Positions 4,764 through 40,547 of a DNA stretch of 64,000 nt are shown piece by piece. The first letter of the stretch is position 1, and every line of letters begins with the position of its first letter. Source of the DNA: a virus; IMG/VR virus record IMGVR_UViG_3300035670_000111, positions 24,240 through 88,239 of that record; one strand, written 5' to 3'. The notes beneath the pieces are model-generated. The model was not told the origin of the DNA and did no database searches. It saw nothing but the letters and a program-made list of their open reading frames with translations. Made by a program: the position numbers and the translations under genes.

Positions 4764-4783
4764 TTTCCCTCCTTAAGCAGATC

Positions 4784-5059: not shown

Positions 5060-5065
5060 GCTTCG

Positions 5066-5094
5066 ACTTTACTCTCTGAAAACTACCCTGTCAA
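5066..5094 (-). promoter_or_regulatory. Sigma-A-type promoter for replication block (likely leaderless mRNA)
   Basis: TTGACA (5094-5089), 17 nt, TAAAGT (5071-5066), ATG at 5059. Confidence 0.7.
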
Positions 5095-13302: not shown

Positions 13303-15023
13303 GACTTGGCCTCCTCTCCAGTACCAGCAACTTTAGCAGCACGATTTTGAAACTCTTGTTTAATCTTTTTCTTTGAAAGTTCAAGAGATGGGTATCTAAT
13401 AAAGGAGATATTTACTACAGACAGCATTGGAACCATTTCTTGGGTAAACATAACGTGTTTTACGTCTAAGCTTGCCATGGATCCGTAATACTTTAGATTA
13501 TTATGTAGATGGAACCAACAAGGAGTACCCGTTATATAACCAAAGTCTGAAGTCTTTCCGTCGTAGTCTAATAGAGCAGTTTTTCCAGGATCTCCATTTA
13601 AAACTCTGTATAAGAACTCAAGATCGTATTCTGTTCCTCTATAAAGGATCCCTTCAATTTCTTCTTTTCTTAATGCTCTTGGATAACCATTTGTATAGTC
13701 TATTCCATTACTTGTTGTTACCGTTGATTTTAAATTTTTTAGGGCGGTCATGTCAACAATGCGGTTTAAGTAAAGCTCGATGTTTACTGTTGTATTTCCA
13801 CCAAGAAGGTTTGCGGGATCTTTGCTGTTAAGCATCCAATCTACAGACGTGTTTGTAGTAGTACCGTAATTCATAGATTGAGGGTTATAGGTAAATCTAA
13901 AACCCCACAATTTTCTTTCTCCTTTTGTGGGTTTATTTAGAGCTTCAGCACCATCCGTAGACTGGTATATCTTTCCAAGCCGGTTATTTCTATTATTTAA
14001 TGCGGCTACAACTCCCCTAGGATCTATGGTTACATCGTCCCGTTTATTTATAATTTCTCGCGTTCTTTCCCCATGACCTACAGATCTAGTGACAAAATGG
14101 TTTGGTGGGTTGTACTGAATTTTGTCTAAATCAGGAGGGGGCAAAATTTCTCCAAGAGCTGGATTAGGGGTTTCTTCTTCCCCGCATACGGCTCTTACAG
14201 CCTGTAATAAAACTTCTTGAGCTTGTCCAAAATAGGTATTAGGACCAGTAGCATCTACGGCTTCTCTTCCTAGGTACTGTTCACGTATTTTTTGACCATT
14301 TTTACTGTAGTAAACAAGCGTGGTATCAACTTTACCGCCAGCAACGTTTGTAAGATAAAACCCTACCCATTCATTAGTGCATCGATTCCATCGAGCTCTG
14401 TCTGCTCCTACAAGAGTTTTTAAGGCTGGCGGGATCTTTGGTTGAGTAGATGCTTTTGTAAAATTTAAGGTTTTCATCCTAGCATTTGGATATAAACCTA
14501 TTTCAACAGGCTCAGGATTAAGAGGGTTTTCTTGACTTCCAGCTTCAAGGGTTACTTGTATTCTTGGAGTAATAACTCCCTTATCAGTACCGTTTATGAA
14601 AAAGGTAAATACTGTGTTTCCTTTTCCTGAAACAGGAGAGCTCTGTCTAACATAATTTCCAAAACTTTTTGGACAAGTTGCGTAAGAGGCAATGCTGTCT
14701 AACCAGCTTTGTAAAACAACTACCCTAACGCCGTCATCATCTCCCAACAAACCTACTGGATTTGGACCAAGGCCCGGAGAAGTTTCTTTCCAAACACGTA
14801 CTTCAAACTTTAATTGGTGCTTATAGTTTACTTGTTTTCCGTTATCTGGCGATAGCCAGTCTCCAGTTATAATTGGGTCATCATCCCAGCCATATATGCT
14901 TGCCCAACCATCAGAGTCTACAGCGTTAGTTGTTTCGACCCCAGTGTTTCCACTGCCTAAGTTGTCATCTATAAACTCGTAATAGTCAATGGTATAGAAA
15001 TATCCAGACTCATATGTCGGCAT
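13299..15023 (-). CDS. Tail tube initiator-like baseplate protein with N-terminal extension
   Basis: GFRFTYNPQS and late LDVKHVMFTQEMVP motifs; position between tape measure and LysM gene. Confidence 0.65.
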   Translation of the reverse strand: MPTYESGYFYTIDYYEFIDDNLGSGNTGVETTNAVDSDGWASIYGWDDDPIITGDWLSPDNGKQVNYKHQLKFEVRVWKETSPGLGPNPVGLLGDDDGVRVVVLQSWLDSIASYATCPKSFGNYVRQSSPVSGKGNTVFTFFINGTDKGVITPRIQVTLEAGSQENPLNPEPVEIGLYPNARMKTLNFTKASTQPKIPPALKTLVGADRARWNRCTNEWVGFYLTNVAGGKVDTTLVYYSKNGQKIREQYLGREAVDATGPNTYFGQAQEVLLQAVRAVCGEEETPNPALGEILPPPDLDKIQYNPPNHFVTRSVGHGERTREIINKRDDVTIDPRGVVAALNNRNNRLGKIYQSTDGAEALNKPTKGERKLWGFRFTYNPQSMNYGTTTNTSVDWMLNSKDPANLLGGNTTVNIELYLNRIVDMTALKNLKSTVTTSNGIDYTNGYPRALRKEEIEGILYRGTEYDLEFLYRVLNGDPGKTALLDYDGKTSDFGYITGTPCWFHLHNNLKYYGSMASLDVKHVMFTQEMVPMLSVVNISFIRYPSLELSKKKIKQEFQNRAAKVAGTGEEAKS

Positions 15024-18000
15024 TAGTAGATACCTAATCCTTCCCCATACTTAATCTTTGCTTCTAATCTCTTTAGTACATCGTCGGCAAGTTTGTTTGC
15101 TTCTCCAACAGATGCTCTTGCTATATTAACGTTCATGTGTACCTGCACGTCTATTTTAGAGGACGCATTGAAGTTTGCTCCACTACTTCTTTGAACAACT
15201 ACAGAAGAACCTTCAGTAGCCAAACCTCCAGAAGAGGAGTTACCCATTGTTTCTGGGCCCCCACCAATTCCAGATTTTTGAGCTATTCGATTAGCGTCGT
15301 CCATCCAATTAAGGAAAGTACCGTCTTTATAAACAGACCAAGGCTCCCAATTTTTTCCGCCTTTGCTTATTTCAAGCGCTGCTGCAAGATTGTATTTAGG
15401 ATTTTTTAGTCGAGAAGCATCTCTCCATGGATTACTATAGGATTTCCAATTATTTAAAGACCTTATTTGAAACGGCCCATAACTTGGTCCCCACTTACGA
15501 GTTACTAAGCTTTTATCTCCAACAGCATCTACTCTTCCACCAGATTCTGCCATAGCTACTGCAAAAGCAGTTTTTAAGGCGTCTCCTCTAAAACCAGCTT
15601 CATAGAGCATACGCATAAAGCCTGCTCTACTTCCTCCGGCTATGCCTTGTTCTCCGCCCCTACCCTCAGTATGCCCTGGGTCTAATATATCCTTGTATCT
15701 ACTATCCTTTGGATTAATTCCGCTCATAAGCCTGTCGTAGTTAACCGGGCCGTTATTTCCAAACATACTAAGTAATTGCGCTATGGACGGGCTTGTATAT
15801 TTCTTGCTTAATGGGGTGCCGAAGTCCTCAAGATTTCTACTTTCAGCATTTGTTCCTTTGTGGCCCGTAAACGTATTTGCTACTGCGCCTACCATTGATT
15901 TTAGTCCACTAACAATTTTAGTTCCTACGGCTTTTATAAAGGAGAATGCTTTACCAAAGAAACTCTTAGGATTTTCTCTTCCTTGAGCACCGACTCCACC
16001 GTGGTCTCTAACTTCAAAGTGAAGGTGAGGACCTGTAGAACTTCCTGCTCCTCGAGCGCCCTTCTTACCGCCAGACTTTGCAATTACCTGACCTCTTTTT
16101 ACACGTTGACCTTTTTGAACTAAGATCTCGCTTAAGTGGGCATACAGAGTCGATTTAACTTGATGTTTAATAATTATATAGAATCCGTATTGTGCATGAG
16201 TCCCAGTCTCGTAGACTATTCCGTCAGCTGCGGCTTGTACAGGACTTCCTACTGCAACTGCGTAGTCAATACCTCTGTGATTAGAACTAATGCCTGGATT
16301 CTTTCTTGCTGCTTCTGCGCGAGGGCCATAATCAGAACTAATACGTGTACCTGGTTTTACAGGTGGTTGAAAAACTTTACCGTATTGTGCTGGAGCTCCG
16401 CCGCCATCTCCACCAATACCATGTGAGCAACCCATATTTCCGTGGTTGCACCCGCCGCCATCTCCGCCCATACCAGCAAGGGTTTGTCCAACACCTATAG
16501 CTGTACCTATTGCAGCACCTATACCAGTTCCTATTACTGGTATAAAGCTTCCAATAGCTGCGCCAGTAAGGGCCATACCGCCAATATTTGCTGCGGCAAG
16601 GCCGGCTTTTCTTACGCCTGGACTTACTTTTTCTCCAAATAACGCGTCTAATCCTTCAGCACCTAGTACTGCAGCTATTGATCCAAGCGTTAATTTACCT
16701 TTTGAAGATTTAAGTAGTTTTAATAGTGCTGCTCTTTTTGTAAGTGCTGCTGCACCAGTAGCTGTAGCTGCTGTTGCTCCAGCCGCAGCGGCTCCTGCGC
16801 TAACTCCTCCAGCTGCCATCGCACCTGTTCCCATAAAACCAGCTTTGCCTCCAACACCTAACATACGGGCAGTTAAACCTAATTGGAGTGCACTTCCAGC
16901 CGCGCCTGCCATCATGCCGCCTAAACCAGATAAGGTAGCGCCTGTGTTTCCAGCCCCAGGTAAAGTTTGTAAAATTCCTTTTAGAGTCATCAAGCCATCG
17001 TTTACTGGACCTAAGATGTCAGCCATAGTGCTAAACGCATCGTTTACAGACGCGGTTGTTCTTAGGGAGACGTTGTAGCCACCTACTAATCCTTCTTCGG
17101 TAGCTTGAAGTTTTCTTGCCTCAGAGGTGTTGTATCTAAACTGAGCACGGAGCGGGCTTTCTTTTCCAACGCCCATAATGTCTAATGCTCTGTTAGGATC
17201 TGATAAATCTTTTTTAGTTAGGGAAGAGCCTTTACTTGCTCTTGCAATAATTCCCATCTGTAGCTGTTGCAATAGCTCTGGATTTCCTCCAGAGAGTTGC
17301 ATGAGGGTCGCATAGCCTTTAGATCCTGGATTAAGGACCATCATGGCTTGCTCTTTAGTTATCTTACGTCCGCCATATAGGAAGCCATATGCCTGATTAA
17401 CAAGCTGGTTAGGAGCAACGAGGTTTCCTTGGCGATCACGTGCTCGTATACCCGCACGTAAGAAGCTCATCGCATTTATTCCAGCAAATGCGCCAGCTAC
17501 TTGTTCATTAGACGCTCCGGTCAAAGCAGACATACCGCCTACTTGACCCATAATGCGTCGTGAGCTTAAAGTGTTAGCTAAATATCCGCCCTGATAGCCC
17601 AGCGTAGCTGCAGCCGCAGTAGGTCCCATGGCGCTAGTTGCACCGCCACCTACTAGCCTATTAGACTGTGCTATTAGGCCTTGAGCACCCATCCCGCTGA
17701 GTCCAGCAAGAGAATCAGCGTAGATTCTTTGTGTAACGGCGGACATGGTGTTTGGAGCCATGCTGTACGCTGTAGCTCCAGCAGCAAGGCCAATAACGCC
17801 CAAGCCCATGGCTTGCTGTTGACGTCTAGTTCCGCTACTAAAAGCACCTAAACCTAGTGTTTGACCGCCAACACCTTTGTTCCCGGTTGTGGCTTCAAGT
17901 AAAAGATCGCGGTATTCTCTGGCGTTCTTAACTAGCTTTTCAGAATAATCTACAAGTTTTTTCATGCCCGCATCGCTCTTAGAAAATACTTTATCTAAGA

Positions 18001-18073
18001 CTCCGGGCATGGATGTAAAGTTTTCGGAGTCCGAAGCTCCGACCATATTCTGTCCACCGGGTGGAGTTGCCAT
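15023..18073 (-). CDS. Tape measure protein with C-terminal M23 peptidase and lysozyme-like transglycosylase domains
   Basis: Long Gly/Ala-rich helical region; HRGIDY...YAHL...STGPHLHFEV (M23); AVAMAESGG...SYGPFQI...NWEPW. Confidence 0.92.
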   Translation of the reverse strand: MATPPGGQNMVGASDSENFTSMPGVLDKVFSKSDAGMKKLVDYSEKLVKNAREYRDLLLEATTGNKGVGGQTLGLGAFSSGTRRQQQAMGLGVIGLAAGATAYSMAPNTMSAVTQRIYADSLAGLSGMGAQGLIAQSNRLVGGGATSAMGPTAAAATLGYQGGYLANTLSSRRIMGQVGGMSALTGASNEQVAGAFAGINAMSFLRAGIRARDRQGNLVAPNQLVNQAYGFLYGGRKITKEQAMMVLNPGSKGYATLMQLSGGNPELLQQLQMGIIARASKGSSLTKKDLSDPNRALDIMGVGKESPLRAQFRYNTSEARKLQATEEGLVGGYNVSLRTTASVNDAFSTMADILGPVNDGLMTLKGILQTLPGAGNTGATLSGLGGMMAGAAGSALQLGLTARMLGVGGKAGFMGTGAMAAGGVSAGAAAAGATAATATGAAALTKRAALLKLLKSSKGKLTLGSIAAVLGAEGLDALFGEKVSPGVRKAGLAAANIGGMALTGAAIGSFIPVIGTGIGAAIGTAIGVGQTLAGMGGDGGGCNHGNMGCSHGIGGDGGGAPAQYGKVFQPPVKPGTRISSDYGPRAEAARKNPGISSNHRGIDYAVAVGSPVQAAADGIVYETGTHAQYGFYIIIKHQVKSTLYAHLSEILVQKGQRVKRGQVIAKSGGKKGARGAGSSTGPHLHFEVRDHGGVGAQGRENPKSFFGKAFSFIKAVGTKIVSGLKSMVGAVANTFTGHKGTNAESRNLEDFGTPLSKKYTSPSIAQLLSMFGNNGPVNYDRLMSGINPKDSRYKDILDPGHTEGRGGEQGIAGGSRAGFMRMLYEAGFRGDALKTAFAVAMAESGGRVDAVGDKSLVTRKWGPSYGPFQIRSLNNWKSYSNPWRDASRLKNPKYNLAAALEISKGGKNWEPWSVYKDGTFLNWMDDANRIAQKSGIGGGPETMGNSSSGGLATEGSSVVVQRSSGANFNASSKIDVQVHMNVNIARASVGEANKLADDVLKRLEAKIKYGEGLGIY

Positions 18074-28334: not shown

Positions 28335-30469
28335 GAGAACCTTCCCCAAACGCTAATTGTACTAGAGGACATGCTGCTAATAGTGGTAGGTAAATCTGTC
28401 TGAGCGGCCACTGCTCCAGTAAGTCTAGGAGCTAGTGTAGATAGGGTAGCCGGCACAGAACTATACGCAAGTTGTAGGTTTCCAGTTGTAGATGCTAATA
28501 CTATGATTCCAAGGGCGTATCTAGTTCCCGCAGTAAGGGCATAAGTTGAGGGGAAACCTCCCGTAGTATCAAGATTTCGTGTGTAAAGGGTGTTAGTAGT
28601 GCTAAACAAGGTAGTGTCGTTAGCTGTTCTGGCTACTAAAGTTGCAGTATTTCCAGAGACTGTATAGATACCTAGTCTGATTAAAGAAGCTCCGGTAGTT
28701 GCAATAGTAGATGAAGCTACACTTATTGAATCTACTACGGCATCCCAGCTAGGGGTAAACATAGTTAGGTAAACAGTTCCGCTTGTAGGCGTTCCAGTAA
28801 AGTTACCGATTCTTGGGTAAACATCAACAATATCTGAGCTTTGATTTAAAGTACCCGCAGCAGCTATTAGAGGATTATCCCAGACCAATCCCGTAGATTC
28901 TGCAGAGTTTGCTGATAAGAACTTTCCATTTGCTCCAACCGCTAAGTTATCTATAGTTCCACTAGCTGTAGCAGCTAATAGATCTCCCTTTGCCGTAACT
29001 AAGTGGGTACCCAAAAGAGTTGTATTCTCTGCTGGAACCGTAACGGTTACGTCTGCTACAGGATCTGTAAAACTTAAAGTTGTCTCAAAGTCGTTAGCAG
29101 TTCCCTCTACGGTTAAGCTTGAATCAGAAATATATAGACCTGATACTGTTGGGGTTGTTAAAGTTAAATCTGCAACTGAAGTTGTAGTGTCACCTAAAGT
29201 TATAGCTGTAGATCCAAGCGTTATTCCGGAATTTTCAAGCTTATCATTTGTTACGTCACCGTCAACAATTTTTGCTGTGGTAACCGAACCGTCTAGCGGA
29301 GTTCTTTCATCAGATAGACGACTATCATCTCCAAGGACAACCTCTCCCGCTGCGGCATCTCCTGTGGTTGAATAATTTTTACCTGCTGCGGTTCCCGCAT
29401 CAGAAACCTGTGAAAGGGTTATAGATAACAGAGATTGATCAAGACCTAGCACTGCGGCGGTAGATGTTCCAGTATTTGTAACAGGACCCGTTACAGAGAT
29501 AACTCCAGATGGACCGGTTGGGCCTATATCTCCCTGAGGACCTGTTGGGCCGGTGTCTCCCTGTGGTCCAGTAGGACCTTGTGGACCAACAATCTGACCG
29601 GCGCTGTACCAGCCAGAGATATCGCTCCAAACGTAAACATCTCCATCTGAGTCAACAATGTAAGCATCATTTTGGTTTGGAGTTGGAGTTGTTGGTAAAT
29701 CTATAGGAGTAGCAACGCTACCAATAAGGTTGATAGCAACACCTTGTGGACCTGTAGGACCAAGCTCTCCTTGAGGTCCTGTTGGTCCCGTTTCACCTTG
29801 AGGACCGGTTGGTCCAAGGTTTGAAACCGCGATTGCTCCAGCCATTGGTGGGTGGTATTGGCAAACGTAATAAAGTTGCGGTGCGTCAAAAGGAACTTCA
29901 AAAATAATAGTTCCACTTTGAGTACCATTGTTAGTAATTCCTGTGCTGTAAATATTTCCAGAACTATAGGCTCCAGATACTGTTTGAATCCAGAATGGAT
30001 GGCCTACAGCATTAACATTAATTACATATCTGTGACCACGAATGAAAGATAACGTTGGGTTGCTTTCGCCATTAATTACGTAAGCGCCTGATCCAGAGTT
30101 AGTTACATTTAGAACAATACCGCCACTAGGACCAGTTGGTCCAGTTGGTCCTGTTGGACCTGTAGGACCGGTGACACCTTGAGGAATACCAAAGTTGTAT
30201 ACGGCTGCAGTTGCAGTTCCTGTATTAACAACGGTTGCAGAAGATCCTGGGGCTAGGGTAGAAACAACTCCTACAGTTGCTGTAGAACTTGGGCCTGTTG
30301 GACCTGTTGGTCCGGAGGAGTAGGGCAAAGAGTTCCAAGCAGATGAACCATTTCCAATTTTAAACTTACCAGTGTCGTACTCGTAACCAACTTCTCCTTG
30401 GGAAAGGATTGGGTTTGCGGTTGCCCACTCAGATACAGTTCCGCGTCTAAATTGAACTTTAACTGCCAT
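28331..30469 (-). CDS. Tail fibre with Mtd/hyaluronidase-like N-terminus, collagen repeats and cupredoxin-like domain
   Basis: QFRRGT...NPILSQGEVGYEYDTGKFKIGNG; GPT repeats; GHPF...YYVCQYHPPMAG. Confidence 0.85.
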   Translation of the reverse strand: MAVKVQFRRGTVSEWATANPILSQGEVGYEYDTGKFKIGNGSSAWNSLPYSSGPTGPTGPSSTATVGVVSTLAPGSSATVVNTGTATAAVYNFGIPQGVTGPTGPTGPTGPTGPSGGIVLNVTNSGSGAYVINGESNPTLSFIRGHRYVINVNAVGHPFWIQTVSGAYSSGNIYSTGITNNGTQSGTIIFEVPFDAPQLYYVCQYHPPMAGAIAVSNLGPTGPQGETGPTGPQGELGPTGPQGVAINLIGSVATPIDLPTTPTPNQNDAYIVDSDGDVYVWSDISGWYSAGQIVGPQGPTGPQGDTGPTGPQGDIGPTGPSGVISVTGPVTNTGTSTAAVLGLDQSLLSITLSQVSDAGTAAGKNYSTTGDAAAGEVVLGDDSRLSDERTPLDGSVTTAKIVDGDVTNDKLENSGITLGSTAITLGDTTTSVADLTLTTPTVSGLYISDSSLTVEGTANDFETTLSFTDPVADVTVTVPAENTTLLGTHLVTAKGDLLAATASGTIDNLAVGANGKFLSANSAESTGLVWDNPLIAAAGTLNQSSDIVDVYPRIGNFTGTPTSGTVYLTMFTPSWDAVVDSISVASSTIATTGASLIRLGIYTVSGNTATLVARTANDTTLFSTTNTLYTRNLDTTGGFPSTYALTAGTRYALGIIVLASTTGNLQLAYSSVPATLSTLAPRLTGAVAAQTDLPTTISSMSSSTISVWGRFS

Positions 30470-30612
30470 TAGCAATCACACTTCTTTCCTTTTTTCATTT
30501 TCCACCACATCCAAACATGGTGAGCCGCCATTAGTCCCATAAGAGCCCACATAACTTTCATCTCAGTTATTTGAAAAGAAAAGTCTGTTGAGTGATTTGT
30601 ATGATCATGCAT
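30469..30612 (-). CDS. His/Met-rich single-TM microprotein (47 aa)
   Basis: Manual: [47 protein letters not shown]; TAATG overlaps at both ends. Confidence 0.7.
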   Translation of the reverse strand: MHDHTNHSTDFSFQITEMKVMWALMGLMAAHHVWMWWKMKKGKKCDC

Positions 30613-30905
30613 TAGTCGTTAGGCCCTCCGCAATCAATAGGGACAACTCCACCGTACGTAGAAGACGGAGTTCCGCAATCTACGTTTTGAAAGATAGGAC
30701 CAGTCGGTCCAGTTGGACCAGCAGATCCAGTGGGCCCAGTTACAGCAGGACCGGTTGGCCCGGTTGGACCAGCAGGACCTGTAGGTCCGATTGGACCTAA
30801 AGACTCTTTAATGACCCACTTGTAACCGTCCCAAAGCCAAGTAGTTCCTGCAGCACTGAACTCTTCGTTTAGCGCAGGGGAATTAGGAAAGTCAATTGCT
30901 GGCAC
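30612..30905 (-). CDS. Short collagen-like fibre protein
   Basis: [10 protein letters not shown]...WLWDG..W followed by GPT repeats. Confidence 0.8.
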
Positions 30906-30927: not shown

Positions 30928-31629
30928 CTAGTCGTAGGACTTCTTAACCCAAACTACTTTTCTGTACCCGTCGTATAGGTATTTAGCGACTTGGAACAGC
31001 TGCTTGTTTAGCCAGTTCTTGTCAGTCTCTTTGACTTCGCTTTGCCAACCTTCTCTTTTAAAAGGGATGATTTGCATTATGGGGGTGCCCGCAGGGATGG
31101 TTCCTTCAAACCCTTCTTTTAAGAAGAAGGGTATCTCCCCACCAAGGGAGAACCCGTCAGAGTCAACAACTCCAGAGGTAGTTGTAAACGGGAGATCAAA
31201 CCTATTTAAAGGGTGGGTGAACACACAGCTATATCCTTGAGGAACAGATACTGCCCAATAGGTGTGCCAAGCGTACAAGTCATGGTCATGACCAGACGGT
31301 CTGGGCAAAGTAGAAGCCATGTCTTTTGGTCTAATTTCTACAATGGATGGGGCTTCGTTCCAGAAAAACCCCACCTCATTGCCTTTACGTTGAACTAGCA
31401 AATCTACTGGCAGTGTCAGCATATAACCAGTAGTTAAAGCGTCTAAAAATGGAACGCATAGCTTTATGTCTTTATTAATTCCACCAGCCTCTCCAAGAAT
31501 TTCCATTTTACCGCTACGAAACCTTTTGGCTTTTTTGTACCAATCTGGAACATAGGACTTAGCGGATTTTGGTGGTTCGAACTTAGACACGTCCTCATTC
31601 ATAGGCATAAAACTAATGCGCTTTGTCAT
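30928..31629 (-). CDS. Conserved beta-rich phage protein (DUF6065-like pattern)
   Basis: KLCVPFLDA...GYSCVFTHPLNR...GVVDSD...IPAGTPIMQIIPFKR. Confidence 0.7.
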   Translation of the reverse strand: MTKRISFMPMNEDVSKFEPPKSAKSYVPDWYKKAKRFRSGKMEILGEAGGINKDIKLCVPFLDALTTGYMLTLPVDLLVQRKGNEVGFFWNEAPSIVEIRPKDMASTLPRPSGHDHDLYAWHTYWAVSVPQGYSCVFTHPLNRFDLPFTTTSGVVDSDGFSLGGEIPFFLKEGFEGTIPAGTPIMQIIPFKREGWQSEVKETDKNWLNKQLFQVAKYLYDGYRKVVWVKKSYD

Positions 31630-31630
31630 T

Positions 31631-32581
31631 TTATAGAATTCCTCCATAGTACAGGGTTATACCCATCAATACGACAGGCACTACAAGCGCAAGGATAGCC
31701 TTATAGTAATCTTTAAGCGGAGTCCTAAAATAACTCTTTCCTACAACTAGGCACTTGTGGGCTGGGGATAGCATGTACCCAGCGTAGTCAACGGCAAAGA
31801 ACAATGGCAAGGTTTCAACGCCAAATACTCCTACAGATAGGACCACAAATCCAGCAAACTTGCTACTGCTTCCTAGGGCAAAGCTGGCTAGAAAACCAGT
31901 AAATGCTACAAGAATAAGTAGGTTGTTTTTATGGGCGGCCTCAATCCATCCGTTAATCGTGTCGATATTAGCCTTAACAATGTTGCTAAGCACGATAACA
32001 ATGGCGGTGAATACTAAGACTCGTGCGTAGTCAATGAGTTGCTTACGATCACGCTTGGAATCTGCCTCTAACTGCCAAGACTCCTTATCCTTCTTCTTTA
32101 GCGGTTTCCCTGGAATAACGATTTCAATATCATTTTCTTTTAGTACCTTAAAGATATAGAACAAAATAACAACTGCTGCGGTAGCAAGTAAGGGCGAAAT
32201 TTTACTCATTAACTCCCAGTAACTAATGCTTAGAGCTGCCATAGGCAATAAAACAGTAGCCTCTAATGGGGACCAGAAGTAAAAATGATGCGTAGATAGG
32301 TAGTCAATAATTCCGTAATTCTTACGCTTTTTGTGATCTTCTGGAGCAATGGTATCTAGAGCACCAGCCGAAATAGCGACGCGACCTGAAATCGGTAGTA
32401 CACCAGAAAATAGGGAGATCAGCGCTACGACTGCTCTCTTTGACTTAACACGTGTAGCAATCCATGCGTAAAACGGCATGAATACTTGTGTCTTTTTTGC
32501 AGCAAAGGAAAGTCCCATTACTGCGGCCAGTAGAATGAGGAATTGCTGATTATCCAGCAACAACGATGATGTAAATTCCAT
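31631..32581 (-). CDS. Multi-pass membrane transporter (DUF401/IT-superfamily-like)
   Basis: About 9 TM segments; GVLPISG and GYMLSPAHKCLV...YF motifs. Confidence 0.75.
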   Translation of the reverse strand: MEFTSSLLLDNQQFLILLAAVMGLSFAAKKTQVFMPFYAWIATRVKSKRAVVALISLFSGVLPISGRVAISAGALDTIAPEDHKKRKNYGIIDYLSTHHFYFWSPLEATVLLPMAALSISYWELMSKISPLLATAAVVILFYIFKVLKENDIEIVIPGKPLKKKDKESWQLEADSKRDRKQLIDYARVLVFTAIVIVLSNIVKANIDTINGWIEAAHKNNLLILVAFTGFLASFALGSSSKFAGFVVLSVGVFGVETLPLFFAVDYAGYMLSPAHKCLVVGKSYFRTPLKDYYKAILALVVPVVLMGITLYYGGIL

Positions 32582-34193
32582 TCCACCACATCCTTTCGTT
32601 TTCGATGCTGTTTAGCATCTTTTTGGAGTATACGGGTGTAAGACCCGCGGCTTTCACCGCATCGTCAGCTGCACGCACCGTATCTGTCCAATTCGCGTCA
32701 TCGAACACAAGGATGGCTTGCTTAGCGAAGCAGTCCCTATAACGGGTCACGGCCTTATAAATATGCTCGTACTCGTGAGGTCCGTCATAGAAAAATAAAT
32801 CCACATCTTTGATGGTGGACACATCAACTTCGTGCATATCCTCATTAATGATGTGCACTTTGTTATCGCCCACATATGGGGCTATATTTTTTTCAAACTC
32901 ATCTTGGTTATTAGGCGGGAGCTCTCCGTGCTCTTCTCTAACCGGCTGTAGGTCTTCTTCCCACATGTCGATAAAGTAGGCGTCCAGATTATTTCCCGCT
33001 AAAGCGGCCGCTCCTGTAGCGCCCAGATAAGCGCCTATTTCTAGGTAAACCTTTGATTGAGAGGCCAACCCATTGAGCAGTTGTTGAATACGTTTGCTGG
33101 TAAGTCCAGGGATATTAATATCCAACTTTCGGTTTACCGAATCAACCAGTTCTCTAGTTACAACCAAGGTGCGAGGCTGTCGCTTGTCTCCATACTTAGC
33201 CGCAACAATTTTGTCGCAGTACCCGCAGTCCCAGCAGTCAAACTTGCAAGTCTTAATCTTTTCACGCCAGATATTAATTGGTCTGTCTACCAAGTTTCCT
33301 TCTTCTACGAAGTCCTTGAAATGGTCAAACAGAATTTCTTTACCAGCAATATAATTGCGGATAATCTGCATAGTCTCTCTGAGCCTAGAGCGAGATTCAC
33401 GACCGTGCATCTTTATGACATCAATACCAAGTTCGTTTAAGAAGTAATCCCAGTCCTCTTTCCATGGTGGAAAGTTGGCTGTTTTTAACGGAACTGCTTG
33501 ATCCTCATAGTCCCACTTCATACAAGAAACACGGCTAATAGAGTCCGCAAAATATTGTGAAGATTCGGACCTAGTGTTGTTAAAGTGGTAATGCTCGTCC
33601 ATCATAGGGCAACCACCCAGGCATCCTTCGTTAGCCAACAGGGATAGTTTTACCCCGTATTGTTCTTTTGCCTTTTTAAATCTTTTTAGTTTTTCATGAT
33701 CTCGCATCAAATCTCGGTCTAGATTTATGTAGTTAAACCCAGCCTTTGCCAAATGAGATATTTCCCGTGGTTCAGATACATTTCTAAGAATAGTGTTCTT
33801 AATAAAGATTCCGGGAAACTCCGCCTGGATTTGACCACTAGCAACCCAGTGAGTGTGTGGGATTGTGATTGATCGAATACCAGCCTCGTATAAAGGCCTA
33901 AAGTTTTCAATAAATAGGTCTAAGTTCTCTTGGGTAGGTGGTACATATATGTTGTTAAACACGGCAGAAGCTGTGATGCCGGTAAAGGTTTGAATATTTA
34001 TAGCAAGTTCGTTTAGATACTTGTGGTCTTCTTCGGGGTTGGAAAAGACATCACCCATCGCATCTTGCATAAAAGGCGGTATACGGCAGGTAAAGTAAAA
34101 GTCATAGATATAGCTTTTGCACTCATCTAAAAATTCTATGAACTCTTCAAGTTCCTCTTGATTCAGCTTGGGATTTAAGGGTACTGTGAACAT
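32550..34193 (-). CDS. U32-family Fe-S enzyme fused to class I SAM methyltransferase
   Basis: INLDRDLMRD, LLANEGCLGGCP, KMHGRE, CKFDCWDCGYC; then YLEIGAYLG, FFYDGPH, LVFDD. Confidence 0.85.
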   Translation of the reverse strand: MFTVPLNPKLNQEELEEFIEFLDECKSYIYDFYFTCRIPPFMQDAMGDVFSNPEEDHKYLNELAINIQTFTGITASAVFNNIYVPPTQENLDLFIENFRPLYEAGIRSITIPHTHWVASGQIQAEFPGIFIKNTILRNVSEPREISHLAKAGFNYINLDRDLMRDHEKLKRFKKAKEQYGVKLSLLANEGCLGGCPMMDEHYHFNNTRSESSQYFADSISRVSCMKWDYEDQAVPLKTANFPPWKEDWDYFLNELGIDVIKMHGRESRSRLRETMQIIRNYIAGKEILFDHFKDFVEEGNLVDRPINIWREKIKTCKFDCWDCGYCDKIVAAKYGDKRQPRTLVVTRELVDSVNRKLDINIPGLTSKRIQQLLNGLASQSKVYLEIGAYLGATGAAALAGNNLDAYFIDMWEEDLQPVREEHGELPPNNQDEFEKNIAPYVGDNKVHIINEDMHEVDVSTIKDVDLFFYDGPHEYEHIYKAVTRYRDCFAKQAILVFDDANWTDTVRAADDAVKAAGLTPVYSKKMLNSIENERMWWNGIYIIVVAG

Positions 34194-34572
34194 GTGGTTT
34201 CATGACTTGCCAAAACGCGTCGGCTTGTCTTTTGTCCTCCTCAGTTAACTCGTATTTGTACCGCATAGGGCAATCAACTAGGTCGCCCATCTTATTACGT
34301 TTTGGGTGTTCCACAAATCGCGTTTTTTGCTCTGGAGTGAACTGATCCATTACATTTGAGTGCGCCCAGACGTGAATGTACCCCCTATTAATATCGTAGT
34401 ATTTGTACCCCATAGCCTCATACTCGCTCATGGGTATATACGGAAGTTCCTCTGGCACGTTCTCTACTTCAGTAAAGTACCAAAACATAAAGGACCCTTT
34501 TATCTTTAGGGCGTCCCATTGATCCGGGCTAAACTTATAGATATCGTCGTGAAATAGTCCGGCGAAGGTCAT
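34147..34572 (-). CDS. Hypothetical protein
   Basis: 141 aa; ATGA-coupled to coiled-coil gene. Confidence 0.7.
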   Translation of the reverse strand: MTFAGLFHDDIYKFSPDQWDALKIKGSFMFWYFTEVENVPEELPYIPMSEYEAMGYKYYDINRGYIHVWAHSNVMDQFTPEQKTRFVEHPKRNKMGDLVDCPMRYKYELTEEDKRQADAFWQVMKPHVHSTLKSQAESRGT

Positions 34573-35342
34573 TCTATTTCTTTAGGCTTATCTATTAACT
34601 CAATTGTAAATTGTTTGTTAGCCAACTCTTTAATCTTGGCTGACTGAATTTGACCTAAAGCATTATCTACACGTGTCGCCCAATCCACAGCAACAGTCAA
34701 AGCTGCTACAGCAGAATCAGTGTCCATCTGAGAGATGGCGTCCATGTTTCCCGTGCCAATTTTTCCCATAGCCATTAGGTCCAAGGCAGCCTGTTTTCCT
34801 AGGCGCTGAACCCAATGGTCTGCCTCAAGCTTGGCTGACAGCTCTTCATTTTGCACAGCATCTTTTAAATCAGTTCCGTCTGGAAGGTACGCCTCACCTG
34901 TCTGGTACATCTCTTCTAACGCAATTATGTAATTTTTACGTTCTACATAACATTGGTTTAGCCTGCGGTGCATTTTTATGAGGTCGTTTTTATTAGTAAT
35001 TAATTCAAACTCTTTTAATTTAACTTTTGCCGGAGATGTGGTTTCTGACATCTCTTCATGAACCACTTCTATCTGAGCCTCTTGTTTTGCAATGTTCATT
35101 AGAAGGTTTTCAATAACCTCTTCACGAGATCTAATTTCTAAAAGAAACTGTTTGTATTTTTGATAAGGTGTAATTTGGGCGTCACCCACAAAGTGCTTAA
35201 TCTTAAAGTAAGGGGTGCTATGGTCTATGTCTAAAGAGAACTTTAGTAGTTCTACTTGCTTATCATTAAGGTCCCCGGTGTCGGTAACCAACTTTTGACG
35301 AGCTGCTTCTAGGCGCTCTTCAAGGCTTGTAATATTATCCAT
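34569..35342 (-). CDS. Coiled-coil protein
   Basis: Heptad-rich; HWVQRLGKQAALDL...GNMDAI; ATG 35342 follows GGAG (35354 is an alternative start). Confidence 0.8.
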   Translation of the reverse strand: MDNITSLEERLEAARQKLVTDTGDLNDKQVELLKFSLDIDHSTPYFKIKHFVGDAQITPYQKYKQFLLEIRSREEVIENLLMNIAKQEAQIEVVHEEMSETTSPAKVKLKEFELITNKNDLIKMHRRLNQCYVERKNYIIALEEMYQTGEAYLPDGTDLKDAVQNEELSAKLEADHWVQRLGKQAALDLMAMGKIGTGNMDAISQMDTDSAVAALTVAVDWATRVDNALGQIQSAKIKELANKQFTIELIDKPKEIE

Positions 35343-35376
35343 GTTGTTCTCCATGTTGTTAGTGTACCAGGTGCTG

Positions 35377-36399
35377 TTAATCTCTCCAGAACCCGTGTCC
35401 TGAGGACCTTCCGTTAATGGCGGCTCCATTTGTATGAGTACCAGTAAGAGAAGTTGATGTTACGCGGAAGCCAGAATCCGTAGCAAAATCAAACTTTCCA
35501 ATATCATTGGTTTGACCTGTCGTGGATGCGTTACCACCTGTGGTATCTGAGTAGTGACCCAGCATAATGCCGTGAGTCTGGCTCATAGAGAAGTTTTCTT
35601 CACCGCAGAACCACACGCTCTTTTGTGGGGTTGCTACTGTGCTCTCTGTAGTGTAATTCCACTTTCGGAAATAACGACCAGACCCATAAGTCCCCTCGTT
35701 ACCTCCATAACCAAATCCGGTTTTAGCCGGAGAACCCTTTTGCTGTCCGTGGAACCCTGGAGAAGATCCAGGAGTAGACTCTGCTTCCGTTGCAAAAACA
35801 AACTTTCTACGATATGTAGAGTCGCCATCTGCGTTGTCTCCCCAAAAATAACCCCAGTTCTCGCTCATGTGAGCCCCTGCGCCGGTACCGGCCTGTCCAA
35901 AACCAGTTCCTGCCGTCGAGGTGTGGACTTCGGTTGTTAAATTAAACTTTTGATATACGGCTGTACCTTGGTTTCCTGTTTGCCATGAGAATGTGTAGTT
36001 TCCTGTAGTGTCTTGGGCAAGAATAGTGGCTGAATCTCCAACAGTTTGAGCGGTGTTCATGGCCGCTTGTTTTGTATACGTTGTATCGTTTCTCATACTA
36101 AATACTGAAGTAGAGGTAAATGCGCCAACACCACCAGTGCCCCAAACAAAACCTATATTTCGGTTATGAGCACCGGACGTATAGTTAGCTGTTTCTGTAA
36201 GGATGTTTCCTAGGTTACTTGCAACGTCTGTAGAAAATGCGTACTTGTTTACATTCTGCCATGGAACGCTGTCTTTGTATCCAGCGGCTACATAACCAGT
36301 TGTTAAAACTTGACGCGTTAGAAAAGGAAGAATTCCACCTCGCTTATAGCGAGCGCTGAAGACACCATTAACAGATCTTTGGGATGCAAAAATAGGCAT
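35377..36399 (-). CDS. Kelch-like beta-propeller protein (paralog B)
   Basis: Repeated GY/GF..G...KF.F.TD/TE blades. Confidence 0.75.
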   Translation of the reverse strand: MPIFASQRSVNGVFSARYKRGGILPFLTRQVLTTGYVAAGYKDSVPWQNVNKYAFSTDVASNLGNILTETANYTSGAHNRNIGFVWGTGGVGAFTSTSVFSMRNDTTYTKQAAMNTAQTVGDSATILAQDTTGNYTFSWQTGNQGTAVYQKFNLTTEVHTSTAGTGFGQAGTGAGAHMSENWGYFWGDNADGDSTYRRKFVFATEAESTPGSSPGFHGQQKGSPAKTGFGYGGNEGTYGSGRYFRKWNYTTESTVATPQKSVWFCGEENFSMSQTHGIMLGHYSDTTGGNASTTGQTNDIGKFDFATDSGFRVTSTSLTGTHTNGAAINGRSSGHGFWRD

Positions 36400-37439
36400 T
36401 AGTCACTCCACATTCCTGCGCCAGATGAGCGCCCTTCAATAGCCGCTCCAGCCGAAGATCCTGTTCCGCTTTGTGTTCCAGTAGGCCATTGTCCTGAAGG
36501 CCATAGCGCTCTAGCACCAGTAGCAAACTCATAGTAACCGGATTCGTTTACTTGAGCTCCATTGTAGTGACCAAGCACATACCCACGGGTCTGCGACTGA
36601 GAATGGTTCTCTTCTCCAGAATTAAGGATTGCTTTTGTATTAGCGCCAAGAGTTGTAATGGTGCTAGTTGCGTAAGTGTACTGTCGGTATGAGTAGCCCG
36701 CATTATAGCCGCCCTCGTTACCGCTCCAACCTTTTCCATCTTTAGAGACAAGACCTTTTTGTTGAGATGCTGGAGATGCTCCGGAAAAAGATTGTCCGGG
36801 GTTTGTCTCCGCTTCTGTAGCATAAGTAAAAGAGCGTTGACCGTCTGCAGCTGTGGTTGCAGTACTATCTGCCCAATAAATAGCGCGAGTCTCATCAAAG
36901 TGAGCTCCGGCTCCAGTACTCGCATTGTTCATGCCAGTTCCTGGTCCTGTAGTCCAAACATCATTGGACATATTAAATTTGTAATAGTTAGCGCTAGAGT
37001 TTCCGCCCATTACATAAGCTATCCAGCCAGTTCCAAGTGTGTCGTAATAAATAGGCGACTCAGCGTCAGCCATAGTTCCTGGGGCTGTTCCAGGTTGAGT
37101 TTGGGTAGTAAAGTTTTTTAAATGAAACTTAGAAGTCTTGTTGTAAGAGCCCATACCTTCATTACCAGTACCGTTAGTACCAAAGACATAACCCATGGTA
37201 CGACTCATAGCGCCACACACGTAACCGCCAGCTTCATTTAAAATGTCACCGCGGTTAGTTGGGGTCTCAGTTGACCATGCGTATGAGTTAACGTTGCGCC
37301 AAGCAACGCTGTTTTTATACCCAGCAGCTACATAGCCTGTAGTGATGACTTGCCTAATCTTAAAAGGCAGAATACCGCCGCGTTTGTATCTAGCGCTAAA
37401 TACGCCGTTAACGGAACGCTGCGAGGCAAATATTGGCAC
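36399..37439 (-). CDS. Kelch-like beta-propeller protein (paralog A)
   Basis: Same blade pattern; first 26 aa identical to paralog B. Confidence 0.75.
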   Translation of the reverse strand: MPIFASQRSVNGVFSARYKRGGILPFKIRQVITTGYVAAGYKNSVAWRNVNSYAWSTETPTNRGDILNEAGGYVCGAMSRTMGYVFGTNGTGNEGMGSYNKTSKFHLKNFTTQTQPGTAPGTMADAESPIYYDTLGTGWIAYVMGGNSSANYYKFNMSNDVWTTGPGTGMNNASTGAGAHFDETRAIYWADSTATTAADGQRSFTYATEAETNPGQSFSGASPASQQKGLVSKDGKGWSGNEGGYNAGYSYRQYTYATSTITTLGANTKAILNSGEENHSQSQTRGYVLGHYNGAQVNESGYYEFATGARALWPSGQWPTGTQSGTGSSAGAAIEGRSSGAGMWSD

Positions 37440-37452
37440 TCTAGCCTCCTAA

Positions 37453-40227
37453 TTAACCGAAGTTTACGCTTGCGTTACCTAACGCTGTCCAAGCACCGCC
37501 ACGTCGTACTAGGGTGAAATTGTACACGTCAATGCGTCCTGAGGTAGATGTTGGAGTTGGCGCTTGTGCTCCGTACCATCTAATTGTTACTGGTGAACCG
37601 GCAACTTGTAGGGTAGCAGGGTAATAACCAGTTCCGCCTTGGGTAACAAAACCGGTAACGGTAAATGTTCTGCCATCTGTTGTAGGAGCGTTAGTGATGT
37701 TCCAGGTCATATTTCCAGAAGGAGTAGATGTAATCCAGAACACTGATCCGGATTGGTAGTTTAGAGTCGCAACGTTTGAGGCAAGCGCTACGTCTACTAC
37801 ATCTTCTACCAGCTCCTGCATACGGAATCCGCCAGTTATTGTTACCTCACCGCTAAATGAAGCGTTTCCAGATACATCCAGAGTTCCGGTAACTGTAGTG
37901 TTTCCTACACGTACTGGAGCAAAACTTACTCCAGCCTCTGCAAAGTTAACAGTTGAGACAGGTCGCTCTACTAAACCTCTAAATAATTTAAACGTTCCAC
38001 CATCGTTTGCATCTCGAGCCACACCAGAGTATTCTCTGCGTGAAGACACAGAAGCAGAACCGGCTGGAGAAACAGCGGCTGATGTTACGTTCGCATTTGT
38101 TTTGTCATAAGTAAACGTTGTAGCGGTTGGTACGTCTTGGATGATGTAAGTTCCATTGAATGTAGCATCTACTCCAGATACAACTACCTGGTCTCCAGCA
38201 CGATACGTGTGAGCAGCCGCAGTTGTTAATGTTGCTACGTTTGAGGTCAATGCTTTGTTTGTCACTGAGGCTAAGATTGGCGATACGGTTACTCCGTAAC
38301 GAAGCACAAGTCCTAGATCTAAAGCATCTGCAGCGTTACCGACACCCGCAAAGATTAGCGGGTCAGAAACTGCCAAGTTGTCTGTGGTAACTGTGGTTCC
38401 ACCACCACCGAAGGTAATAGCACCGGTGATATTTACGTTACCAAGGATGTTCATATCACCCTGGATACCAACTCCACCTACAACGGTAAGAGCACCTGTA
38501 GTTGGGCTGGTTGACGGTGTTGGGATTTCAATGTGGACTGAGACATCTGGGGTAATAACCATCTGTGTGTTGTCAGAGGCAAGACCACCGGCTGCAAAAA
38601 CAATAGCGTTTTCTTGTCCAGTATCGCTTGTTGCAAGGACTAGGTTTCCGTTACCTGGGGTTCCGTATGGAGCGGCCATAAAGATATAGCCATCGTTTAC
38701 TCCAGTAATAGTGAACTCAGGGTCACCAAATGTTGAGGATGTAATGCCCATATCAATGTAGCCAGAGAAGTCATTTCCATTATCTGGGTACGCGATAAAG
38801 TCAGTTGATACGTTAGTTCCAGAAGAGGTGTTGTGGATGATTAACTGTGAGAAGTCCGAGTCTGCATCAGTAGTAAATACGGCGATTGGGTTTGTCCAAC
38901 CTGTTACCGCACTTGCAGTTAATCCTGATCCTATAACTGAGGTTAGGGCTACATCTGCGCCAGCGCTATCGTAAGTGAAGGTGGTAGGTGTAGGGACGTC
39001 GATAATTTCTACTTCTCCGTCAAAATCCACATCGCCAATAGCAACAGTAACGAACTGGAATGGAGAAAACCCGTGAGCAACGGATGTAGTAATAGTTGCT
39101 ACGTTGCTGGCCTTCTCTTTAGCACTTACGGTTTTTACGTTTTCACCAATAGAGTCTGTTAAAGTTCTAGCGTCTGGTCCAACGTAAATAAGCTCTGAAT
39201 CGGCTTCAATCGCACCAGCCGTGTAAACATCTCCTGTGGCTGAGTCGACTGTAAACTTATTGGTGTCTACCTCAATGCCGCCATTGGCCGCTAAAGTGCC
39301 GGTTAAAGTTGTAAGACCTGTTACGTCTAAGTTGCCTTCGGTAGAGATATTTCCAGTAACTGAGGCTGATCCAGCAGGAGAAACTACCCCACCCGCATCA
39401 GTTGCTGTAGAGGTTGAATAACTAAACGTTGTGTCTGTGACCGCGGTAAGTAATGCTCCACCAGCGTTATACCCTGCGCCAACTCCGGTTACGATTACTC
39501 GGTCTCCAACGTCAAAGTAATGTTTTCCGTCAGTAGTTAGAGTTACTACGTTACTAGCAATAACCTTTTGAATAACATCAACTGATCGTGATGTGGTGGC
39601 AACATTTCCTTTTACGTTTGCGTCTCCGTCAACAGTTATGTCGGAAAGAGTTGATAGAGTTGTTACTGTTGGGGTACCTGACCAAGATGTAGCTGATCCA
39701 TCAGTTACTAAAACTGTGTTCTCATTTCCTACTTGATTAGGGAATGCGCCATCTACAAATAACTCCCAATAAGTTGTGTCAGTTGGAGTGTTTCCTGTTG
39801 TGCGTAAAATACAAATATATGCAGAACCACCGTAGGTTACTACGTCGCCAGGTTGGTAAGTTGTTACTCCAGCGTATGCTCCCTCATATTGAATACCATC
39901 AACAATGGTTGCCCAGTAAGTTCCATTAGGTGGACGGTTTCCAGTTGTGTCAGCAATGCAGATGTAACCTTTGGCGCCTTCAGTTACGAGGTCACCAATC
40001 TTGTACGCAGTTGCGTTGTCGTAAGCGCCTTTAAAGTCAAGGCCCTCAAGCATCAAATCCCAGTAGGTTGTGCTTGTTGGGAGATTACCGGTTGACTCTA
40101 GCGCGTTCTTGTATACGTAGAGGTTACCACCATAGCGGACTACGTCATTTAGTTCGTAGGCAGTGGCTCCAGAATAAGTCCCTTTAAATACGAAACGAAG
40201 TTTGCCTAGATCGATAATCTGAGCCAC
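37453..40227 (-). CDS. Long tail fibre
   Basis: GTG 40227 (MAQIIDLGKLRF); N-terminal Y-x2-GD-V...YW repeats; three TxTTxxxHx-Y/F modules. Confidence 0.85.
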   Translation of the reverse strand: MAQIIDLGKLRFVFKGTYSGATAYELNDVVRYGGNLYVYKNALESTGNLPTSTTYWDLMLEGLDFKGAYDNATAYKIGDLVTEGAKGYICIADTTGNRPPNGTYWATIVDGIQYEGAYAGVTTYQPGDVVTYGGSAYICILRTTGNTPTDTTYWELFVDGAFPNQVGNENTVLVTDGSATSWSGTPTVTTLSTLSDITVDGDANVKGNVATTSRSVDVIQKVIASNVVTLTTDGKHYFDVGDRVIVTGVGAGYNAGGALLTAVTDTTFSYSTSTATDAGGVVSPAGSASVTGNISTEGNLDVTGLTTLTGTLAANGGIEVDTNKFTVDSATGDVYTAGAIEADSELIYVGPDARTLTDSIGENVKTVSAKEKASNVATITTSVAHGFSPFQFVTVAIGDVDFDGEVEIIDVPTPTTFTYDSAGADVALTSVIGSGLTASAVTGWTNPIAVFTTDADSDFSQLIIHNTSSGTNVSTDFIAYPDNGNDFSGYIDMGITSSTFGDPEFTITGVNDGYIFMAAPYGTPGNGNLVLATSDTGQENAIVFAAGGLASDNTQMVITPDVSVHIEIPTPSTSPTTGALTVVGGVGIQGDMNILGNVNITGAITFGGGGTTVTTDNLAVSDPLIFAGVGNAADALDLGLVLRYGVTVSPILASVTNKALTSNVATLTTAAAHTYRAGDQVVVSGVDATFNGTYIIQDVPTATTFTYDKTNANVTSAAVSPAGSASVSSRREYSGVARDANDGGTFKLFRGLVERPVSTVNFAEAGVSFAPVRVGNTTVTGTLDVSGNASFSGEVTITGGFRMQELVEDVVDVALASNVATLNYQSGSVFWITSTPSGNMTWNITNAPTTDGRTFTVTGFVTQGGTGYYPATLQVAGSPVTIRWYGAQAPTPTSTSGRIDVYNFTLVRRGGAWTALGNASVNFG

Positions 40228-40547
40228 TAGTTTACCTCCAAGTAGAGATGGTCCGAGGACCAAGAGAACTTAAGCAGGCTGGTGGTCCAAACCCATACCT
40301 TGTAGTCATTATTCCTTAAAATGTTGTCTTTTGGTAGGTCAACCGCGTCTCCATCATTAGATTCAATTTTAGTGATGGTTAATTCTCCGGTAGAAGGGTT
40401 TAGTTTCCATCCGTAGAACGTCTTATCGCCTATTTCCTCAATTGTTGGGTAGCCACCGACAGCGCTTGCTAATGGCAAGGTGTCTCGGGAGTCATACCCT
40501 ATTACGGTCGCCCCAGTTAAGTCACTAGGGTCTGCATATCCTGGCAT
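40227..40547 (-). CDS. Fibre-associated hypothetical protein
   Basis: 106 aa, RBS AGGAG, coupled to fibre gene. Confidence 0.75.
   Translation of the reverse strand: MPGYADPSDLTGATVIGYDSRDTLPLASAVGGYPTIEEIGDKTFYGWKLNPSTGELTITKIESNDGDAVDLPKDNILRNNDYKVWVWTTSLLKFSWSSDHLYLEVN

Follow-up and report, generated by a model that had tools for sequence, protein, structure and literature searches.

A 64,000-nucleotide stretch of a virus genome (IMG/VR record IMGVR_UViG_3300035670_000111, positions 24,240 to 88,239; this whole stretch is called the window below, and its numbering is used for its genes) carries a block of seven genes, here g1 to g7, set among the tail-fibre genes of a myovirus. The block holds a mobile and dispensable phage module. 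At its centre stand two proteins inherited together: g3, an acidic helical protein, and g5, in which a divergent U32-like barrel is joined to a methyltransferase-type domain. Kelch propellers (g1 and g2 here) accompany them nearly always; a membrane protein (g6) and the methyltransferase domain are optional. Our preferred interpretation, drawn from sequence and model comparisons and given a probability of about 0.42, is that the enzyme performs an O2-independent hydroxylation of the U32 type with an iron-sulfur (Fe-S) cluster and then an O-methylation, on a target linked to g3 and to the Kelch or fibre proteins. Family members are all annotated 'hypothetical' (380 cluster representatives, 567 IMG/VR loci, and 126 isolate genomes), and literature searches on U32 or Kelch proteins with cyanophages or tail fibres, and on DUF401, returned no description of the module.

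The source record is an 88-kb genome with a CheckV completeness estimate of ~90%, and a near-DNA search of the phage record collection with the stretch returned zero near-identical records. Sequencing runs that contain the stretch are DNA runs from a subsurface-metagenome study, possibly its source; no RNA run was among them. The genome codes for a contractile tail sheath and for several collagen-like or carbohydrate-binding-module (CBM)-bearing fibre proteins. An earlier note on this DNA, made from its letters alone, had described seven abutting or overlapping genes inside the fibre block, and their coordinates confirm this: seven minus-strand open reading frames (ORFs) occupy 30928-37439, with junctions, from g1 to g7, of -1, -53, -4, -47, -32, and -17 nt. 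A promoter and terminator scan of the block gave counts not above those of shuffled controls and no convincing internal terminator.

The linkage of g3 and g5 is strict. Among the 50,697 records of the phage collection searched for module proteins, each occurs in 126, with the same breakdown: 77 Synechococcus, 38 'Cyanophage', 8 Prochlorococcus, and 3 Ralstonia. The Kelch family matches 121 phage records. The IMG/VR survey covered the closest 80 of 567 loci, near-duplicates included; by profile searches, Kelch and g3 are both present in all 67 loci with at least 4 kb of upstream sequence. A neighbourhood survey had been suggested as the check on whether U32-like homologs keep company with the coiled coil and the propellers, and in these 67 loci they do. 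The coiled coil itself had been treated as peripheral; it is instead the enzyme's constant partner and obligate companion.

Gene order tells the same story. Cyanophages S-CAM4 and P-SSM4 have Kelch, g3, and enzyme in that order. In the unrelated Ralstonia jumbo phage RP31 the order is collagen-like ORF, 292-aa ORF, g3 homolog, U32-like protein (here lacking the methyltransferase), and DUF401-like protein; the 292-aa ORF is probably Kelch-like, because its length equals that of a 292-aa protein of Ralstonia phage RP12 found among viral fold matches (see below). The module thus ranges over marine cyanomyoviruses, freshwater and subsurface myoviruses, and Ralstonia jumbo phages. It can also be absent. 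Genes T4-GC351-354 are among those that distinguish P-HM2 from its co-isolated sister P-HM1 (PMC3037559, Table S5); P-HM2 carries the block as these four genes, and P-HM1 is without it. S-SM1 and Syn9 have no block at the syntenic site. (T4-GC351-354 are not listed in the virion proteomes of S-SM1, Syn9, and S-PM2 (PMC3037559, Table S8), which is uninformative, S-SM1 and Syn9 being without the cassette at that site.)

The g3 protein (286 aa; 34569..35429, minus strand) is predicted to be helical or coiled-coil, and matches phrog_1409 at 1.8e-33. Its invariant residues are F80, Q94, E98, R102, W206, R209, Q213, G222, G227, N228, and A247, and its conserved residues include the motif W-x-x-R-L-G-K-Q-A-A-x-D. 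Searches returned no PDB relative, no protein-atlas neighbour, and no longer fused form (the fusion evidence is weak); no g3 domain was found inside the longer U32-like proteins examined. Between g3 and g5 lies a variable slot, filled here by the small ORF g4 (141 aa; 34147..34572, minus strand), which matches no family in Pfam, PHROG, or NCBIfam. By tblastn, g4 is confined to a handful of close relatives; in the cyanophages and in RP31, the g3 gene lies immediately next to that of the enzyme.

The enzyme g5 (547 aa; 32550..34193, minus strand) has two halves. Residues 1-345 (33159..34193) make up the barrel, a divergent U32-superfamily TIM-barrel domain and putative Fe-S redox enzyme or hydroxylase. 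The motifs quoted for it earlier (EGCLGGCP, SC, KMHGRE, and CxxxCxxCxxC) are all present in the translation: NEGCLGGCP at 33606-33632, SC at 33522-33527, KMHGRE at 33396-33413, and CKFDCWDCGYC at 33216-33248. An exhaustive homolog search with residues 1-345 matched 380 cluster representatives at E<=1e-3, including many stand-alone proteins of ~340 aa and a more distant group of 400-450 aa. Seven cysteines are invariant in 77 aligned relatives, at identities down to 21%: C191, C195, C224, C316, C320, C323, and C326. Residues E189, E200, H201, D258, K261, G264, and R265 are nearly invariant. The seven cysteines presumably hold one or two Fe-S clusters.

The AlphaFold (AF2) model of g5 is confident (predicted local distance difference test score, pLDDT, 92.8). 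VIA-align superposes model residues 1-271 on Mk0906 (PDB 5d88), a solved U32 'peptidase' domain, with Z 17.0 and a root-mean-square deviation (rmsd) of 3.1 over 223/247 residues at 9% identity. Mk0906 is the sole TIM barrel among the top 50 VIA-align rows for g5, the other rows being methyltransferases, and Foldseek agrees (E 9.8e-7, TMt 0.65). Beyond this closest solved structure, g5 adds a C-terminal helical region with the four-cysteine run (residues ~272-345). Profile comparison by hhalign gave P 2.6e-6 (probability 89%) against TrhP and 1.8e-4 against RlhA; control comparisons with unrelated alignments and reversed sequences gave P 0.07-0.75, and the templates were thin, consisting of four E. 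coli U32 sequences. A global alignment, of low confidence, sets KMHGRE against the U32 'KIEGR' motif and pairs C191/C195 with the U32 C-x3-C. Judged by model and profile, residues 1-345 belong to the U32 superfamily as a genuine, though very remote, branch; by sequence search they lie outside the U32 family as Pfam defines it. The label 'U32' is used because of fold and profile comparison, not by sequence-database assignment. The U32 domain of the earlier note stands in its modelled fold, and the profile similarity to TrhP and RlhA, drawn from thin templates, points the same way; a match to a curated U32 model and the U32 cysteine pattern do not come with it.

(The tblastn alignments of the S-CAM4 and P-SSM4 enzymes to g5 begin ~46 codons before their annotated starts (L001 7001-7139 and L002 7001-7127, respectively); the extra codons are in frame and overlap the preceding gene. 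The deposited starts of these homologs are probably too short, because the N-terminus is conserved from M1 across the family.)

Residues 346-547 (32550..33158) make up the second half of g5, which had been read as a class I methyltransferase, and this reading holds. Pfam Methyltransf_24 (PF13578) matches residues 384-499 (3e-9; 38.1 bits, cut-off 26.3), the sole curated-library match anywhere in g5. Of 14 compared proteins that have a C-terminal extension on the U32-like domain, 12 keep the motifs ExGxxxG, YDGxH, and DDAN, S-CAM4 and P-SSM4 among them; the remaining two bear another C-terminal domain. By sequence and model, the domain has a class I, S-adenosylmethionine (SAM)-dependent O-methyltransferase fold of the cation-dependent type, as found in catechol, sugar, and 5-hydroxyuridine (ho5U) methyltransferases. 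VIA-align places it at Z 15-17 to TomG, MeT1, Rv0187, COMT, TrmR, SpnH, and MycF. These rows are effectively tied, so no substrate class can be read from the domain. It shares with the cation-dependent O-methyltransferases (COMT/CCoAOMT and the others just named) the fold, the SAM motif, and the YDG and DDAN motifs, and differs in its low identity (~10-18%) and in being fused behind a putative Fe-S barrel. The domain is facultative: most phages, this one among them, have the fusion, and RP31 and many stand-alone forms of the enzyme are without it.

The propellers g1 (346 aa; 36399..37439, minus strand) and g2 (340 aa; 35377..36399, minus strand) are paralogs, 45% identical overall, that match phrog_1417 at 1.3e-32 and 1.5e-27, respectively. 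The AF2 model of g1 (pLDDT 85.8; residues 1-21 below 50) superposes by VIA-align on the Kelch domains of KLHL17 (Z 29.2, rmsd 2.7, 276 residues), KLHL12 (Z 28.7), and Keap1 (Z 28.4), with 273-276 residues aligned across the three. Both proteins are thus predicted to be six-bladed Kelch propellers, and the description 'twin propellers' was apt. Unlike the KLHL and Keap1 proteins, g1 and g2 have no BTB or BACK domains, fall below the Pfam Kelch cut-off (Kelch_6 against g1, 15.1 bits, cut-off 25.3), and have a phage-specific N-terminal peptide, putatively for docking, and a G-x-SSG-x-x-W C-terminal tail. Viral fold matches of g1 include 'sericin 1-like' proteins of cyanophages, the 292-aa protein of RP12, and, from jumbo phages, Kelch-like 'virion structural proteins'.

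The first 26 residues are the same in g1 and g2, yet many of their codons differ; this suggests that selection has kept the peptide, which the model shows as disordered, and speaks against recent gene conversion. Where another phage has two Kelch paralogs, these again have one N-terminus in common, and it differs from phage to phage; more distant relatives begin with motifs typical of fibre N-termini. Copy number varies: one Kelch gene in 41 IMG/VR loci, two in 20, and three in 6. In two loci, L116 and L121, Kelch is the C-terminal domain of ORFs longer than 1100 aa, one of which has a weak minor-tail match. Together these features suggest that g1 and g2 act as exchangeable distal heads of the fibre apparatus.

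Two further observations concern the Kelch proteins. Both g1 and g2 end in a conserved tail, G-R-S-S-G-x-G-x-W-[SR]-D, in which S338 and S339 are invariant in 52 family members. The propeller is closed by its last strand, and SSG may be a site of function or of modification. Also, L116 and L121 have the long Kelch-ended ORF followed by g3, U32-like, and DUF401-like genes. L121 is a Leptospirales metagenome-assembled genome, and its module (5262300-5275322) lies inside a 6.4-Mb bacterial contig and so is probably on a prophage, which may give the host for one branch.

These components suggest the following mechanism. The core would be a two-protein unit of helical g3 and cytoplasmic g5. The barrel of g5 would hydroxylate a C-H position, and the fused methyltransferase would then O-methylate the product, yielding a methoxy group; where the methyltransferase is missing, the hydroxyl would be the end product. 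The Kelch heads would dock through their phage-specific N-terminal peptide, or, in some relatives, are fused to the end of a long tail-type protein. Because the enzyme, g3, and the Kelch proteins are passed on together beside the fibre genes, the target would most likely be g3, a Kelch protein, or a fibre protein, or else a glycan or ligand borne by one of them. The membrane protein g6 would be an optional helper, possibly for metal or small-molecule uptake, and not an obligate subunit.

Hydroxylation followed by methylation is a reasonable expectation because of the U32 relationship, the seven invariant cysteines, and the fusion to an O-methyltransferase. TrhP with TrmR is one known case of this sequence of reactions. 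Another is UbiU/UbiV with UbiG (PMC6747719). The UbiU/UbiV system, which with UbiT and UbiG serves O2-independent ubiquinone hydroxylation, resembles the phage unit in its superfamily, in pairing an enzyme with an obligate partner, in the order of its reactions, and in a possible membrane link (PMC6747719). It differs in that the partner g3 is neither U32 nor SCP2, and in that the phage hosts include cyanobacteria.

Several results weigh against our preferred interpretation. PF01136 (Peptidase_U32; cut-off 22.4 bits) does not match g5 at E<=0.1; it has no match in the 88-kb genome even at E<=10, a setting at which control genomes gave hits. Neither it nor any other Pfam family matches ten distant 400-450-aa relatives of g5, no U32 model of NCBIfam matches g5, and PDB sequence searches with the single g5 sequence and with the family profile gave only non-significant TIM-barrel and zinc-finger rows. 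The cysteine spacing of g5, C191-x3-C195-x28-C224 plus C316-x3-C320-x2-C323-x2-C326 (3+4), differs from the U32 pattern CX6CX15CX3/4C, whose four cysteines are kept in most U32 subfamilies (PMC6747719); in the low-confidence global alignment the C191/C195 pair alone may correspond to U32 cysteines. Profile similarity is non-significant for UbiU and UbiV (P 0.11 each) and best for the RNA-modifying TrhP and RlhA.

The linkage, too, has limits. The IMG/VR sample is biased to close relatives, phage fibre regions are known hot-spots for unrelated accessory genes (PMC3037559), and gene linkage does not give substrate identity. Moreover, a distant clade of the enzyme (L092-L114, IMG/VR marine contigs; ~450 aa, ~30% identical, all seven cysteines kept) lies between regA and the family-B DNA polymerase gene (gp43) of T4-like marine phages, for example at L102:8001-9344. 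Kelch and g3 were not found in these loci. A place in the replication module implies that the chemistry is not intrinsically fibre-directed. In one locus, L107, the gene occurs twice in tandem (4385-5716 and 5652-7034), an arrangement that recalls the heterodimers of U32 proteins. (The ORF downstream of the distant-clade enzyme was considered as a g3 relative and ruled out, with hhalign P 0.32.)

A bolder version of the proposal is that g3 and the U32-like protein form a new O2-independent Fe-S hydroxylase or methoxylase whose post-translational substrates are receptor-binding proteins, whether the Kelch heads, g3, or the collagen-like fibres, or the glycans on them. We regard this as unlikely, and it would be consequential if true: virions would then mature by chemistry of a novel kind, one that adjusts adsorption or host range, and the pair would be the first U32-superfamily enzyme with a protein or glycan substrate. 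The few characterised U32 members hydroxylate without O2 and are tied to quinone and RNA modification. A large viral branch that differs in its cysteine pattern, depends on an obligate partner, and has an O-methyltransferase fused to it would widen the superfamily. In abundant marine cyanophages the module lies within the host-recognition region, and its product could affect adsorption, host range, or virion stability. P-HM2 and P-HM1 offer a natural comparison, and Ralstonia phages RP12 and RP31 offer tractable systems.

The strongest rival is nucleic-acid modification, in which the place near fibre genes would reflect only chance insertion at an accessory-gene hot-spot. The fusion would be a phage counterpart of the route through TrhP and TrmR (U to ho5U to 5-methoxyuridine, mo5U) or of RlhA (5-hydroxycytidine, ho5C), with tRNA or rRNA of host or phage, or else the pyrimidines of phage DNA, as substrate; a new base modification would then be possible. 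We think this the less probable course, with a modest chance of being right. TrhP (YegQ) and RlhA (YdcP) are U32 Fe-S hydroxylases of RNA pyrimidines, TrmR (YrrM) makes mo5U from ho5U, and g5 resembles this set in its U32-type barrel, in the K-x-x-G-R that falls on 'KIEGR', and in coupling the barrel to a TrmR-like O-methyltransferase fold. The hhalign comparisons are significant for TrhP and RlhA and for neither of UbiU and UbiV. For the methyltransferase domain, TrmR belongs to the near-tied group of top structural matches (Z 15.5-16.0), although TomG, MeT1, Rv0187, and COMT score as high or higher. The Joint Genome Institute (JGI) annotation of some homologs is 'O-methyltransferase YrrM', and in B. 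subtilis the U32 genes yrrN and yrrO neighbour yrrM. The distant-clade members beside the DNA polymerase gene, with their one tandem pair, also fit. However, g5 differs from TrhP and RlhA in more than its missing PF01136 match and its 3+4 cysteines: identity is ~9-18%, Pfam searches of g5 gave no U32_C or other RNA-binding domain, and the protein is acidic (isoelectric point, pI, 5.1; N-domain 5.5, methyltransferase 4.7) and fused to its methyltransferase. No tRNA gene was found in the window. Above all, nucleic-acid modification leaves the strict co-inheritance of g3 and the near-strict co-inheritance of Kelch, in a fibre region, unexplained.

A second rival turns on g6 (316 aa; 31631..32581, minus strand), a DUF401-like polytopic membrane protein whose start overlaps the end of g5 by 32 nt. 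Here the U32-like enzyme would hydroxylate a lipid or a quinone-like or aromatic metabolite, the methyltransferase would cap it, and g6 would import, export, or present the compound; the cassette would be an auxiliary metabolic set. In favour of this, a g6-like gene is present in 61/63 metagenomic loci with enough downstream sequence, is directly adjacent to the enzyme gene in 46/63, and is adjacent in RP31. Invariant residues of the g6 family include D93, H98, H99, E107, H275, K276, and C277, polar or metal-type residues that, in our interpretation, are often seen in transporters. The methyltransferase fold is closest to catechol, sugar, and small-molecule O-methyltransferases, and UbiU/UbiV with UbiG is the precedent for such chemistry on a small molecule (PMC6747719).

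Yet g6-like genes occur in only 12 phage isolate records, as against 126 for the enzyme. S-CAM4 has its DUF401-like gene (L127, 159565-160605) ~56 kb from the cassette, beside transaldolase among metabolic genes, which would itself suit a metabolic role; none was found in P-SSM4. Because g6 is facultative, the metabolic reading is weakened; the obligate partners are g3 and Kelch, and the UbiU/UbiV profile match is non-significant. Cellular DUF401-like homologs with the same motifs adjoin unrelated housekeeping genes (SerRS, RuvB, PGM, MFS) and one radical-SAM/SPASM gene, and among the cellular loci examined there was no recurrent partner and no U32 gene. We consider this explanation doubtful. 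Of the earlier proposal of a hydroxylate-then-methylate enzyme with 'its own permease', the co-inherited module and the U32-related fusion survive; the methyltransferase and the permease are both facultative.

The DUF401 match behind the transporter call for g6 is partial. Pfam DUF401 (PF04165) matches g6 at 3.6e-8 and 33.6 bits, above its cut-off of 24, but the best stretch is only the C-terminal 62 residues (profile positions 326-387), and TIGR00529 scores 40.5 bits, far below its cut-off of 378. The RP31 ortholog (36% identical) covers DUF401 positions 67-384/393 at 40.4 bits, and weakly matches CitMHS, which again would suit a transporter. (The S-CAM4 gene lies between a Phd-like antitoxin gene and small ORFs, near tRNA genes, in an auxiliary-metabolic-gene island.)

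Least likely of all is that g5 is no hydroxylase: a structural or assembly barrel with zinc-binding cysteines, a protease or 'collagenase' that processes collagen-like fibres, or a mere neighbour. No catalytic activity is known for the g5 branch, and it was collagenases that first defined U32; here and in RP31 the module has collagen-like genes at its side. Zinc would suit the CxxxCxxCxxC run equally well, a zinc finger being its best, though non-significant, PDB sequence match. On the other side, a methyltransferase with intact SAM motifs is fused to the barrel again and again, which points to small-group chemistry, and the genes keep together too consistently in cyanophages, freshwater phages, and Ralstonia jumbo phages to be neighbours by chance. 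The characterised U32 proteins, moreover, are Fe-S hydroxylases, and most subfamilies keep four cysteines (PMC6747719). We hold this improbable.

The block ends with g7 (239 aa; 30928..31647, minus strand), a DUF6065-like protein that matches phrog_7084 at 4.3e-42. In its nearest protein-atlas clusters (TM 0.95), PF19541 is found in 12-23% of members. By tblastn, g7 is present in only a subset of loci, and is thus a variable accessory at the end of the block.

The genes on both sides are fibre genes on the same minus strand. Directly upstream of g1, across a gap of 13 nt, lies the gene for a 936-aa tail-fibre protein (37453..40263) that matches PHROG tail-fibre families 9851 and 5073 and, weakly, CBM_5_12. 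Downstream of g7 are a 97-aa collagen-like ORF (30612-30905) and a 714-aa (GPT)n collagen-like fibre (28331-30475); Collagen and Mtd_N matches occur among the downstream fibre ORFs (27139..30905 region). The same region includes a GT2-TPR glycosyltransferase gene (27139-28212, minus strand), which matches phrog_13126 'beta-1,4-glycosyltransferase' at 9e-117 and has weak matches to Glycos_transf_2 and to the peptide-binding TPR of prolyl 4-hydroxylase. Its position beside the (GPT)n fibres makes it a candidate fibre glycosylation enzyme. By tblastn, it lies within 10 kb of the cassette (<=10 kb) in only a subset of related loci.

Farther away, a 1016-aa protein (15023-18073, minus strand) has a two-domain match to an M23 peptidase and a lysozyme-like SLT_3 domain, and is probably a tail-associated cell-wall-degrading protein. 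Finally, between its collagen runs the 714-aa (GPT)n fibre contains the segment '...GHPFWIQT...YYVCQYHPPMAG...', in which His, Cys, His, and Met occur in cupredoxin-like order.

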